Below are positions 26,980 through 46,760 of a stretch of DNA of 64,000 bases, piece after piece. Below the pieces are notes generated by a model. The model ran no database searches, was not told where the DNA came from, and worked only from the letters and a program-made list of their open reading frames with translations. The position numbers were made by a program, and so were the translations under genes. Each line of letters starts with the position of its first letter. The first letter of the stretch is position 1. This stretch comes from an uncultured Clostridia bacterium (GTDB taxonomy: Bacteria; Bacillota; Clostridia; TANB77; CAG-508): positions 48,090 to 112,089 of the forward strand of contig CALXKE010000001.1 in NCBI GenBank assembly GCA_944388805.1, in the 5' to 3' direction.

Positions 26980-27057
26980 GGTGGATGTAGCGTAGTTGGT
27001 TAACGCGCCAGTTTGTGGCACTGGAGACCGTGGGTTCGAGTCCCATCTTCCACCCCA
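26980..27057 (+). tRNA. tRNA-His (GTG)
   Basis: Cloverleaf with anticodon loop ttGTGgc, T-loop GGTTCGAGTCC, extra 5' G typical of tRNA-His. Confidence 0.8.
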
Positions 27058-27065
27058 TTATATAT

Positions 27066-27140
27066 TGGGCTGTAGCCAAGCGGTAAGGCACCAGACTTTG
27101 ACTCTGGCATGCGCTAGTTCGAATCTAGCCAGCCCAGCCA
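27066..27140 (+). tRNA. tRNA-Gln (TTG)
   Basis: tgggctgtagccaagcggtaaggcaccagactTTGactctggc...ttcgaatctagccagcccagcca. Confidence 0.8.
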
Positions 27141-29097: not shown

Positions 29098-30447
29098 TTA
29101 TCCAATATAATCTGTATAAATGACACGATTCCAGTAATTCATTAAATTCTGTTTTTCTGATTTTGGAACTATATTGATTCTAATAGCAGAAAAAGGCTTA
29201 TCATGAGAATAGGTTGTTTCTTCACCATCAGAAGAGGCTCTTAACCAACCAACAGACGGAACATAAATTTGATAAACAATAGAATATTCTTCACAATTTT
29301 TTAATTGAAAAGCAATTCCAGAAAGACCATATAAATTTTGTTTTGCAATTTCTTGAGGAATAGGCTTTTTCTGGTTCATACAACTATTGCCAGCTTGATT
29401 ATGTCCATAGCCACCTAACTGCAGAGCAATCTTATTAAGAAAACGTATAGCATTTTGTCCAGTAATATCATACCAAGTTGTGGGACTAGGGTTGTATCCA
29501 TAACTATAGAGAATTTCAGAAGAGTTGCAGAGATCAGTTGTATTTTCACCCCAGTAGGTATAATCAAAAACTCTTGCTTGTAATATAGATTTATCGATGT
29601 CACCATCTAGATAAGTAATGATTCTTTCAGATTTTTTAGAAGAGGCATCAATAATAGTTTGTTTACCAGAAATTTGTCCACTATGATTAAACTCATTAAT
29701 AGGATAACCACTATTATGAGTGGCATAATACAGCATAATGTTTTTTGCATGTTGTATATTAACAAAAACTTCTGATGTATTTCCTGCATAATCTGTTATA
29801 GTGATTGGATAAGAAATAGGGGAAGGAAATATTTTAGATAAAGAAGAATGGGAATCATAGAAATCCCAACCATTTATTGGTCTTAAATTTTCATTAGATT
29901 GAATCATATATTGTGATTTATCATTTTCAATAGATAATTCTTTACAGGTAGAAGTAGGAGAAATGTTATCAATATAAATACCGGTTTCAAATTTTTGGGA
30001 ATCATTTTTTAAACCAAAAGCATCTTCAATGATGCCTTCTGGAAAAACAATACTTAAATTCCCATTGCCTGTTAAATTAGATAATATCAAATCATAAAGC
30101 ATTTCACCGTTGTTATTAGAAAGTAAAGATAATTTTATAGATGGTTTCATAGTTGTATCATTAACTAAAATTTGTATGTTATCATGAGTAAAGTGATTGA
30201 TAGTAACATTTTTTTCTGTAACTTTAATCCTTAGAGTTACAAGATGTGTAGAATTTGCATATTTTTCATATCCTGTATTTGTATTGGAAATACTTAAAAC
30301 TTCTATTACCGGTTTTTTATCAATTTGAATTTTTGTGGCAATGAAGGATTCATTAAAAACATATTTTGAAAAACTAAATTGACAATAAAATGGAATGAGA
30401 AATAGGAAGATGAAAAATAAAAAGATAATAATAAATTTTTTGCTCAA
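29098..30447 (-). CDS. secreted protein (449 aa) with SipW-cognate-like signal peptide
   Basis: N-terminus MSKKFIIIFLFFIFLFLIPFYCQFSFSKYVFNES; the FSKY motif is shared with the TasA-like gene at 31085. Confidence 0.5.
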   Translation of the reverse strand: MSKKFIIIFLFFIFLFLIPFYCQFSFSKYVFNESFIATKIQIDKKPVIEVLSISNTNTGYEKYANSTHLVTLRIKVTEKNVTINHFTHDNIQILVNDTTMKPSIKLSLLSNNNGEMLYDLILSNLTGNGNLSIVFPEGIIEDAFGLKNDSQKFETGIYIDNISPTSTCKELSIENDKSQYMIQSNENLRPINGWDFYDSHSSLSKIFPSPISYPITITDYAGNTSEVFVNIQHAKNIMLYYATHNSGYPINEFNHSGQISGKQTIIDASSKKSERIITYLDGDIDKSILQARVFDYTYWGENTTDLCNSSEILYSYGYNPSPTTWYDITGQNAIRFLNKIALQLGGYGHNQAGNSCMNQKKPIPQEIAKQNLYGLSGIAFQLKNCEEYSIVYQIYVPSVGWLRASSDGEETTYSHDKPFSAIRINIVPKSEKQNLMNYWNRVIYTDYIG

Positions 30448-30656
30448 AAAATCCCTCCTTATTTTATTGAATATTTGTGAAATACGTGAAAATATTTCAT
30501 TTTTATTTTTGGATGATTATTGGGATTTTGAAATTAACGAAATAAAATATTTGAATATGAATGTATACATTATATAAAGAAATATGGAAAATGTCAATAA
30601 ATACAAGATTTTAGTTTCAGAATTTGTAACTATTCAGTGGTATAAAATTTCTAATT

Positions 30657-30838
30657 ACGAGTTCTTGTATATTTATTTTTCATAAATTCCTCGGTTCAAT
30701 ACGTGCTCTAGCCTTTCTAACTACAAAAGAAACGAGCCTCTCGCTATTCCCGCTTCCTCATTTCTTTTATAGTAAGAAAGGCTACAATCACTCCAATCAC
30801 ATTCATCATTTATGAAAAATAAATATACAAGAACTCGT
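30657..30838. repeat. IR-1: 31-bp perfect inverted repeat flanking a 120-bp GC-enriched spacer
   Basis: acgagttcttgtatatttatttttcataaat (30657-30687) and its exact reverse complement (30808-30838); the spacer has nested 9-bp inverted repeats agcctttct/agaaaggct. Confidence 0.9.
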
Positions 30839-30951
30839 TTAATATCAAATATCTTTACTTATGAAACTAAAAATTCAAAAGGATTATTATAAGGAATAGT
30901 GCTTTCTGTCGAATTTTGCGATGAAAATCCTAAAAAATAGTAAAAAAATGA

Positions 30952-30980
30952 TTGACAATGGCAAAATATGGAATTATAAT
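30952..30980 (+). promoter_or_regulatory. consensus sigma-A promoter TTGACA-N17-TATAAT for the TasA-like cluster
   Basis: ttgaca at 30952-57, tataat at 30975-80. Confidence 0.6.
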
Positions 30981-31084: not shown

Positions 31085-31669
31085 TTGAGTAAAAAGAAAA
31101 CGGCTTTGCTAGTAATATGTTTGCTACTAGCGATTATATTATCTTTTATGATTGGTAAAACTTTTTCTAAATACATATCAGAGGTAAAAGGAACAGGAAC
31201 AGCAGAAATAGCAAATTGGGTGTTTAAAGTAAATGGAAAAGAAGATGTTATTCAAAATGTAAATTTATTATCTACATATGATAATGAGACTTTAATTAAT
31301 AATAAGGTAGCTCCAGGGACAAGTGGAAGTTTTAATATTATCGTAGATGCAACAGGTTCTGATGTGGGAATAGACTATGCAATTCAATTCCTAAATGAAA
31401 GTGAAAAACCACAAAACCTAATATTTACCTATGATGATAAACAATATACAACTATACAAGATTTAGAAGAGGATTTATCAGGAACCATAAATGCAAATGA
31501 TGAAAATAAATCAAGAACCATTACAATTAATTGGGAATGGCAATATGAAACTGGTGAAGATGAAAACGAAATTAATCAAAATGATATAATTGACACAAAC
31601 AATGCAAAACAACTAGAAAATTATACATTTGATATATATGTTACAGGAACACAAGTTATGCCACAATAA
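31085..31669 (+). CDS. TasA/CalY (camelysin)-like secreted protein
   Basis: TTG start after RBS aaaggagg. Signal peptide then TFSKYISEVKGTGTAEIANW (cf. CalY GGGTFAFFSDKEVSNNTFAAGTLDL), mid VAPGTSGSF, C-terminal TITINWEWQYE (cf. CalY LNLEWTFNA). Similarity judged from memory. Confidence 0.45.
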   Translation: MSKKKTALLVICLLLAIILSFMIGKTFSKYISEVKGTGTAEIANWVFKVNGKEDVIQNVNLLSTYDNETLINNKVAPGTSGSFNIIVDATGSDVGIDYAIQFLNESEKPQNLIFTYDDKQYTTIQDLEEDLSGTINANDENKSRTITINWEWQYETGEDENEINQNDIIDTNNAKQLENYTFDIYVTGTQVMPQ

Positions 31670-31927: not shown

Positions 31928-32506
31928 ATGGAGAGGAGAAAAGATTTGAATTTAAACTTTATAAAAAAGCCAAAAAAACTAACATTAAAAACTCTAAAAA
32001 AAGAGCAAAAAAAGTATAAAGATAAGAAACAAGAAATTCTTATCATTTGTATGATATTGATAATTGGAATTACATTTTTCTCAGGCGTGAGTGTCGGAAA
32101 AGCCGTATATAATAGTCATATAAAAAATGATACACAAATTGCAAAACCAGTTTTAGAGGTGGAAAAAGGTTCAGAAATGATTATTACAGAAGATAATCAA
32201 AAAGGTGAATATACATTTATAGTAAAAAATTATAATGAAGTAGCAGAAATATCACAAGTAGATTTAACATATTATATTGAAATCTTAGAAAAAGATTTAA
32301 ATGAGTCTATACAATATCAATTATATAAAGATAATGAGCTAATAGAATTGAAAGAAAATAAAACAGAAACAATGACATTTCATAAAGATGTAAAGGAAGA
32401 ACAACACTATACACTAAAAGTAACTTATGATGATAGTAAAAATACAATAGAAGATATCATGCAAGAGATACAAATAAAAGTACATTCAGAACAGTTAAAG
32501 ATATAG
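31928..32506 (+). CDS. membrane-anchored or secreted protein of the TasA-like cluster (possible start TTG 31946)
   Basis: Basic N-terminus, one TM/signal helix, beta-rich ectodomain. Confidence 0.4.
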   Translation: MERRKDLNLNFIKKPKKLTLKTLKKEQKKYKDKKQEILIICMILIIGITFFSGVSVGKAVYNSHIKNDTQIAKPVLEVEKGSEMIITEDNQKGEYTFIVKNYNEVAEISQVDLTYYIEILEKDLNESIQYQLYKDNELIELKENKTETMTFHKDVKEEQHYTLKVTYDDSKNTIEDIMQEIQIKVHSEQLKI

Positions 32507-32514
32507 GTGTAAAA

Positions 32515-33129
32515 ATGCAAAAAAGAAAAAAACGATATATTATCATAATGATCATTTTAGTGTGTATTATATTTTTTATGATAAATTTTATAAGATATGA
32601 TTTTTTACAAGAAGATTTATTATTTTTTCAATTTTTAAGTTCTAGAAATCAATCCAAAGATATTTCTAATGTAAGAAAGCAAGTCGTAGAAAACGATGAA
32701 ACAAATATAAATGTAAAAAACATTTTTTTTGATGTACAGTATCAGAAAACAACAATAAAAGCATTAAATCTAACAGAAACACTAGATAATAAAACATTAG
32801 TATATGAAAAAATAGCACCAGGGACAAGTGGTGAATTTGAAATTTTATTAAATGCTAACCAGAATATGAATTATAAAATTGCATTTGAAAGTGAAAATGA
32901 AAAACCAACTAATTTACAATTTTATACGACAAATAAGGAAAAGAGATATGCCACTTTAGAAAATTTAGGAGAAATATTAACAGGTAAAATTCTAAGAAAT
33001 GAAGAAAAAATAATACCTGTTTATTGGGAATGGAAATATGAAACAAGTCAAGGGCAGAATAAGCAAGATACATTAGAAGCAAAGAAAATTAGAGAATATC
33101 ATTTTTTGATATATGTACAAGGGTATTAG
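32515..33129 (+). CDS. TasA/CalY-like secreted protein, paralog of the gene at 31085
   Basis: IAPGTSGEFEILLNA...IPVYWEWKYETSQG parallels VAPGTSGSFNIIVDA...ITINWEWQYETGED. Confidence 0.45.
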   Translation: MQKRKKRYIIIMIILVCIIFFMINFIRYDFLQEDLLFFQFLSSRNQSKDISNVRKQVVENDETNINVKNIFFDVQYQKTTIKALNLTETLDNKTLVYEKIAPGTSGEFEILLNANQNMNYKIAFESENEKPTNLQFYTTNKEKRYATLENLGEILTGKILRNEEKIIPVYWEWKYETSQGQNKQDTLEAKKIREYHFLIYVQGY

Positions 33130-33406: not shown

Positions 33407-33481
33407 TGGGGTATCGCCAAGCGGTAAGGCATCGGACTCTGACTCCGACATTCCTGTGTTCGAATCACAGTACCCCAGCCA
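33407..33481 (+). tRNA. tRNA-Gln (CTG)
   Basis: tggggtatcgccaagcggtaaggcatcggactCTGactccgac...ttcgaatcacagtaccccagcca. Confidence 0.8.
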
Positions 33482-46618: not shown

Positions 46619-46692
46619 TGGCAGGGGTAGTAGGATTCGAACCCACACAGGCGGTTTTGGAGACCGATGTGCTACCATTAACACTATACCCC
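46619..46692 (-). tRNA. tRNA-Trp (CCA)
   Basis: Minus-strand aggggtatagtgttaatggtagcacatcggtctCCAaaaccg...ggttcgaatcctactacccctgcca. Confidence 0.8.
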
Positions 46693-46760
46693 TATAATTT
46701 TAAGACAATTAATATATTAGCATAAAAAAATGATTTTATCAATATTTTTTTTGAAAATTA

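Follow-up and report, generated by a model that had tools for sequence, protein, structure and literature searches.

What is the perfect inverted repeat that lies between two divergently transcribed genes for exported proteins in this stretch of Clostridia DNA (64 kb, referred to here as the window): a switch controlling phase-variable genes, a mobile element or a structured RNA? The sequence-only reading of the locus took the geometry for that of an invertible DNA switch (inverton), and named a MITE and a structured RNA as alternatives.

The repeat itself is as it had been described: the two arms are complementary at 31 of 31 positions, with a spacing of 120 nt. The arm sequence has no further occurrence in the window (shuffles with a match: 0/100), and the chance of a perfect 31-nt inverted repeat arising within 200 bp, in 64 kb of DNA at 29% GC, is estimated at about 4e-10. 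The inner part of the locus is organized as follows:

30657-30687, no strand: left 31-nt arm (repeat search and shuffles)
30688-30807: 120-bp core, 42% GC, the segment that is inverted in the sister lineage
30688-30708 and 30785-30807: asymmetric internal-loop segments of the core (21 and 23 nt)
30709-30736 and 30757-30784: the two halves of an inner repeat within the core, 28 nt each
30737-30756: apical loop of the core, 20 nt
30808-30838, no strand: right 31-nt arm (repeat search and shuffles)

The core is indeed enriched in GC, at 41.7%, against 29% for the window and 19.8% for the remaining intergenic region, and it is C-rich (36 C versus 14 G). The nested 9-bp repeats reported within it are present, but their size was understated; they belong to an inner stem of 28 nt, 89% complementary, with a 20-nt loop between its halves. 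The complete 182 nt form a single long hairpin (z about -13.7 for either strand), with a fold energy of -85.2 kcal/mol for the minus strand and -67.7 kcal/mol for the plus strand, the minus-strand fold being the stronger because the stem mismatches become G:U there. A terminator-like hairpin is found in the core on the minus strand, at 30745-30731. No ORF of at least 40 aa overlaps the element in the window, the only overlapping ORFs being of 21-33 aa. In Rfam 15, no family matches the element at the gathering score or is relevant by E-value; the sub-threshold shape matches are to plant families (MIR7996, 31.6 bits versus 119; MIR161, 25.7 versus 90). The only Rfam matches at the gathering score anywhere in the window are four tRNA genes (26981-27137, 33407-33478 and 46622-46693).

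The start of the 449-aa gene at 30447 on the minus strand and the consensus promoter of the plus-strand cluster were both placed correctly by the sequence-only reading, and a promoter scan found a second strong promoter on the minus strand. The conserved gene set and its promoters are:

29098-30447, minus strand: gene for the 449-aa protein
30569-30597, minus strand: sigma-70 promoter of the 449-aa gene, 12/12, TTGACA at 30597 and TATAAT at 30569, 60 bp beyond the left arm
30952-30980, plus strand: sigma-70 promoter of the cluster encoding the 194-, 192- and 204-aa proteins, 12/12, 114 bp beyond the right arm and outside the element
31085-31669, 31928-32506 and 32515-33129, plus strand: genes of this cluster

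Within 30657-30838, the scan found no promoter-like site on either strand. The element is on the upstream side of each -35 box; it therefore occupies a non-transcribed spacer and is transcribed from neither strong promoter, and a flip would move neither of them, since both promoters are located outside the element. No recombinase is encoded within about ±10 kb, as had been noted earlier, and the neighbours within some 10 kb are housekeeping genes (MreB, a MiaB-like enzyme, RadA, DisA, a PPIase, an LplA-like ligase, LysRS, an M50 peptidase, TsaD and EF-P). The 449-, 194-, 192- and 204-aa proteins match no significant family in Pfam, NCBIfam or the PDB sequences. The 449-aa and 194-aa proteins have a common N-terminus, in which a K-rich and a hydrophobic stretch occur together with an FSKY motif. 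The AlphaFold model of the 194-aa protein is a beta-sandwich (pLDDT 74). The cluster had been labelled TasA-like, and B. subtilis TasA (5OF1) does have the top TM-score among the PDB matches listed for this model, but with a TMq of 0.36 and an E-value of 0.018, such that a TasA-like identity of the predicted structure is weakly supported.

The inverted repeat, with its 31-bp arms, forms the inner stem within a larger non-coding mobile element of about 245 bp, a MITE. The 182 nt singled out by the sequence-only reading are its inner part only, the element as a whole spanning about 30627-30872. This became clear from other copies, found in a scan of one genome for each species that used the outer 20 nt of the arm as probe. 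Of the 14 loci obtained, 12 are real copies, distributed over 7 MAGs at 2-3 per MAG with unrelated flanks; this copy number is a lower bound, as detection requires an exact 20-mer match. Two single intragenic 20-mer matches, in a Lachnospiraceae (L035) and a Carnobacterium (L045), were rejected as chance. The 7 MAGs are titled uncultured Clostridia, Bacillota or Eubacteriales, and one comes from chicken; copies co-occur in BRZ_NV bin29 (L034, L038 and L043), BRZ_GN bin76 (L044 and L046) and Chicken_24_mag_33 (L033 and L042). At least five unrelated loci carry the family: the window locus; locus A, with the 3' end of an aminotransferase gene and its terminator on one side and a 261-aa gene on the other; locus B, near an 830-aa surface protein; locus C, in the clpX-priA spacer; and locus D, immediately after a gene stop. 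An nhmmer profile search of the 64-kb window for diverged copies returned only the one copy; the element had no BLAST match in plasmid or phage collections, and the arm 20-mer had none in an IMG/VR scan.

Alignment of the family reveals that the arms and core are enclosed by linkers and outer terminal inverted repeats (TIRs) common to the copies. A full copy measures 245-246 bp, and the canonical layout consists of outer TIR, linker A, 31-nt arm, 120-nt core, 31-nt arm, linker B and outer TIR. An identical 15-18 nt flank both ends of the full copies L033, L034, L041 and L046, and the outer TIR TAACTATTCAGTGGT(ATA) is present at both ends of these copies and of L037; the sequence of the family termini is TAACTATTCAGTGG. 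In the window copy, the outer parts are:

30609-30622: repeat X, TTTTAGTTTCAGAA, outermost, 14 nt, 13/14 reverse-complementary to 30859-30872, with which it pairs in the fold
30627-30644: left outer TIR, TAACTATTCAGTGGTATA, intact in this copy
30645-30656: linker A, AAATTTCTAATT, joining the outer TIR and the 31-nt arm
30839-30858: linker B, TTAATATCAAATATCTTTAC, matching the other copies
30859-30872: right end, TTATGAAACTAAAA, degenerate or rearranged, standing where the canonical TIR (..CCACTGAATAGTTAG) is expected

The right end of the window copy diverges from the canonical sequence immediately after linker B and pairs with repeat X instead, an arrangement also present in the sister lineage (L044). 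Repeat X looks like an outer TIR, and the 14-nt pair may be either a rearranged end or the result of insertion into an older hairpin. No convincing 8-bp target-site duplication (TSD) surrounds the window copy, the best candidate pair, AGAATTTG and AAAATTCA, agreeing at 5/8 positions. Given its non-canonical right outer end, the window copy has probably lost its mobility and persists as an immobile fossil. Other copies form a decay series, from one with a shortened core (L037), through copies that have lost the core and retain only the arm hairpin (L036, L043 and L047), to half copies (L038-L042). One of the core-deleted copies (L047, 3290-3345), located about 55 nt past a stop codon, retains only a stem of 20 bp, its AAAA loop and a TTTTT tail; this is the shape of an intrinsic terminator and suggests that a MITE hairpin has been co-opted.

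The marks of transposition are clearest at locus A. The L037 copy there is arranged as CTTGTGTG, 246 bp, CTTGTGTG, with 8-bp direct repeats; L033 and L034 have the 8-bp direct repeats CTGGTGTG on both sides; and the empty locus in a related species (L065 and L066) has a single CTTGTGTG within the same flanks. The locus is filled in L033, L034, L037 and L046 and empty in L053-L068. The locus contains a small palindrome, CACAC-nnn-GTGTG, whose right half is the target. Since both duplicate copies differ alike between species, and since the whole unit is oppositely oriented at the same site in L046, repeated insertion into one preferred 8-bp target is a reasonable inference from these alignments; conversion or inversion through the outer repeats is a possible alternative for this pattern. 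With dispersed copies, outer TIRs, 8-bp TSDs and an empty site in a relative, it is the MITE alternative of the sequence-only reading that proved correct.

The source of the transposase was sought among the same sequences. No fetched locus contains an IS-sized pair of outer TIRs, and neither these loci nor the IMG/VR scan revealed an autonomous IS with matching TIRs. Thirteen IMG/VR matches to a 16-mer of the outer TIR were judged to be chance, each being single, with no partner TIR, on contigs of 39-62% GC. The IS66 family generates 8-bp duplications and has termini starting with GTAA; it was considered as the source, and no claim is made, the ends of the Clostridia element, as defined by comparison with the empty site, being TAAC...GTTAG.

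A third palindromic element, of about 150 bp, is present in L065 (about 961-1120) and also in L066, with bounds AGACGAGTCTCTATTTTTATTATTTT and AAAATAATAAGAATAGAGACTTGTCT. L067, L068 and L072, which encode an identical protein of 263 aa, lack it. Within this third element lies CACAC-CTT-GTGTG, the target preferred by the main family.

Two lineages carry the element at the window locus, and four more distant ones do not. In the orthologous loci of L020, L022, L049 and L050 (77-81% protein identity), the element is absent, and the two promoters are almost back to back and both conserved, as are the upstream motif TGTCGAATTTTGCGATGAAAA and the leader of the 449-aa gene. Because four outgroup lineages without the element retain both promoters, the element at the window locus is, on this comparison of orthologues, a derived insertion that the promoters would not need. 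Its only evident effect on the flanking exported-protein genes is that their promoters are about 290 bp further apart than in the relatives.

Two conserved non-coding blocks were recognized in this spacer. The first, TGTCGAATTTTGCGATGAAAA (30907-30927), precedes the -35 box of the plus-strand promoter and is a candidate binding site for a regulator; the second, ACGAAATAAAATATTTGAATATGAATGTATACATTATATA (30537-30576), covers the -10 box and leader of the 449-aa gene. Whether or not they carry the element, all relatives as distant as 77% protein identity have both blocks. The same divergent-promoter spacer also houses a sibling MITE in a lineage with a 77% orthologue (L024 and L029, also L027), about 130 bp upstream of the start of the 449-aa gene. 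It has the same outer TIR (TAACAGTTCAGTGGT ... ACCACTGAATAGTTA) around a different, almost perfectly palindromic interior of 114 nt, with the 8-bp TSD GTTACAAT, and is missing from L022, L023, L025 and L026, which encode an identical 449-aa protein. A clean empty site for it was not found in the comparison of L022 with L024, the sequences being too different.

The core of the main family occurs in both orientations. In contigs encoding the orthologues of the 449-aa protein that are 96-97% identical to it (P0002, P0003 and P0004), the arms, linkers and flanks are identical to those of the window, and the core is the reverse complement of the window core, with 2-3 SNPs in addition. At the window locus, the five complete assemblies of the window lineage all have the core forward, and the sister lineage, represented by eight assemblies, has it reversed throughout, with no mixed case. 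The eight reverse assemblies represent eight samples, the 5 + 8 assemblies come from three projects, and the window lineage also includes one partial sample with two contigs ending in the element. Among metagenome contigs encoding an identical 449-aa or 194-aa protein, all of those spanning the element have the window orientation. Normalized to their linkers, the window copy, L033, L034, L041, L046 and L037 read A-forward-B, and L044/L013 (the window locus of the sister lineage) and L048 (locus B) read A-reverse-B. The flanks and linkers of L041 and L048, both at locus B, are orthologous and co-oriented, and the inner parts are 98% identical only if one of them is reverse-complemented. By alignment, core-only inversion has thus occurred at least twice in this family, once at the window locus, and always bounded by the 31-nt arms. 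The arms also change in concert: in L041, a C>T in one arm is compensated by G>A in the opposite arm, and in L048 the two arms share a matching insertion of 1 nt.

An apparent inversion of this kind could be produced by assembly, as inverted repeats longer than k leave the orientation of the segment that they enclose undefined in a de Bruijn graph. Logan contigs do break exactly at the arms (L005, L010, L012 and L019), as expected for k = 31, and are therefore uninformative on orientation, and two SPAdes contigs from sample BRZ_MF end within the element. Contigs made with a larger k or by other pipelines nevertheless span it, and their orientation follows the flanking lineage, which random mis-orientation would not do. 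Since this holds across assemblers, and since the inverted cores carry private SNPs, at the window locus and likewise in L041 versus L048, an artefact is hardly credible. Two SPAdes contigs from sample ERZ24773446 (L004 and L009) end in the element (window 30727-30801) with end variants that are typical of the other genomic copy (CAAGCAC and TTCGTC, as in L046), consistent with repeat copies of the window's own strain having been confused by the assembler.

The inversions being genuine in all likelihood, the question becomes whether they are programmed. The inverton reading of the locus was right as to geometry and the occurrence of both core orientations, but a switch controlling phase-variable genes is not supported. 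For such a switch, a recombinase encoded elsewhere would flip the core reversibly at the dispersed copies, altering an orientation-dependent site near the divergent promoters, such as one for protein binding or a terminator-like hairpin; this is improbable. Arm length and spacing lie within the range of known invertons and so fit this reading, as do the two orientations found independently at two loci with breakpoints within the arms, the perfect and co-varying arms, and the asymmetric core, with its 21- and 23-nt internal loops and its terminator-like hairpin on the minus strand. Against it, orientation is fixed by lineage in all 13 assemblies (p about 2e-4 under unbiased switching), the element contains no promoter-like site, both promoters lie outside it and are conserved independently of it, no recombinase is encoded within ±10 kb, other copies occupy housekeeping intergenic regions, and the family has the TSDs, empty site and deletion derivatives of a transposon. 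As orientation strictly follows lineage, fast unbiased switching is unlikely, and the flips look like sporadic evolutionary events rather than a programmed switch. About as improbable is a reading in which a trans-acting recombinase would act on the 31-nt arms, or in which these would be processed in a hairpin-resolving step of the element's own transposition, comparable to flip/flop isomers. It would accommodate the two independent flips, with their precise bounds, and the arms' concerted evolution, and the lineage-fixed orientation and the lack of an internal promoter speak against it; if it were true, the MITE family would spread small invertible modules, and the window copy would be a reversible modulator of exported-protein genes.

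The hairpin could alternatively be a structured non-coding RNA gene or a cis-regulatory RNA, transcribed from the minus strand. This is very unlikely, because there is no Rfam match (only the weak resemblances in shape to plant miRNA hairpins), neither transcription unit includes the element, both -35 boxes being downstream of it, and different loci carry it in different orientations with respect to the neighbouring genes; the TSDs and empty site, moreover, indicate arrival by transposition. The RNA alternative of the sequence-only reading accordingly fared less well than the MITE. In its favour, the stem changes are compensatory, yet arm conversion in DNA palindromes would have the same outcome, and the fold asymmetry (-85 versus -68 kcal/mol) recurs: one strand has an RNA fold advantage of 10-20 kcal/mol in 8/8 copies tested, which hints at a constraint on strand or structure beyond the needs of selfish DNA. 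Also very unlikely is a REP/REPIN-like or IS200/IS605-type palindromic element (PATE), moved as a single-stranded hairpin by a Y1 (HUH) transposase. The long hairpin, the compensatory arm evolution and the small CACAC-nnn-GTGTG hairpin targeted at locus A would suit such an element, but IS200/IS605 elements and REPINs are not known to duplicate their target site or to have terminal inverted repeats, whereas this family has TIRs of 15-18 nt and an 8-bp TSD verified against an empty site.

The inverted repeat is, then, probably the inner hairpin of a decaying, non-autonomous MITE copy whose arms recombine occasionally, with no switch. A transposase supplied in trans would recognize the outer TIRs; the window copy would have landed in the spacer of two promoters standing back to back and increased their separation by about 290 bp; and the arms would recombine at times, through homologous recombination, gene conversion or replication template switching in the hairpin, this recombination flipping the core and keeping the arms identical. 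Several observations sit less easily with this explanation: the exact-20-mer scan detected few copies, with one in the 64-kb window; the fetched loci and IMG/VR yielded no autonomous IS with the same TIRs; the window copy has no recognizable 8-bp TSD and its right end is non-canonical; a site-specific invertase would also yield two flips bounded exactly by perfect arms; and one strand folds better as RNA in every copy tested.

The likeness to a switch has practical consequences. A perfect inverted repeat in a divergent promoter region, present in both orientations between strains, mimics an inverton and is a MITE copy here; inverton predictors based on sequence or orientation could miscall such MITEs. 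The invertons themselves, such as fimS of E. coli, cwpV and flgB of C. difficile, flipped by RecV, and the Mpi regulon of B. fragilis, resemble the window element in being short segments with two orientations between inverted repeats, in their location upstream of exported-protein genes and in that a trans-acting recombinase could serve them. The window element differs in having no internal promoter or coding part, in its lineage-fixed orientation, in belonging to a TSD-type transposon and in having copies in housekeeping contexts.

The Correia elements (CREE) of Neisseria duplicate TA on insertion, and not the 8 bp duplicated by the Clostridia family, with which they have no recognized sequence relationship. 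They can contain outward promoters and an IHF site, whereas the window element has no promoter-like site, and in the Clostridia family it is the inner core, within a second, nested repeat pair, that flips. The two are alike in being non-coding, about 100-250 bp long and dispersed in intergenic regions, often beside promoters, with long inverted repeats that form a long hairpin, in having size variants that arise by internal deletion, and in a reported inversion in situ (PMC10969869). For Neisseria gonorrhoeae, PMC10969869 and PMC5874624 cite Elbeyioglu et al. (2017) for in-situ inversion of Correia elements. The recurrent core flips described here provide a second example of in-situ inversion in a bacterial MITE, after the Neisseria elements.

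REPINs, which are REP doublets mobilized by RAYT transposases, are tied to a RAYT gene and lack TIR and TSD signatures, whereas the Clostridia family has outer TIRs and an 8-bp TSD; the likeness lies in dispersed, hairpin-forming repeats with two arms that evolve in concert (PMC3116915). Prokaryotic MITEs are characterized by a size below 500 bp, TIRs, direct repeats of the target in younger copies, AT-rich intergenic sites and stable stem-loops, and they form a gradient from full copies to truncated, REP-like remnants (PMC10969869). The Clostridia family matches this description in size, TIRs, direct repeats, AT-rich intergenic site, hairpin and truncation gradient, as do RUP and SPRITE of pneumococcus, ERIC/IRU of enterobacteria, Chunjie of Geobacter and QMITE1/2 of Coxiella in the criteria that they share (PMC10969869). 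It is distinguished from these other prokaryotic MITEs by a new sequence, two nested levels of inverted repeats, a low copy number (at least 2-3 per MAG, by exact-20-mer scan), and the apparent re-use of one 8-bp target, and its hairpin remnants resemble intrinsic terminators. It is a previously undescribed MITE family, with sibling families of the same outer TIR, in uncultured Clostridia, in part from the chicken gut.
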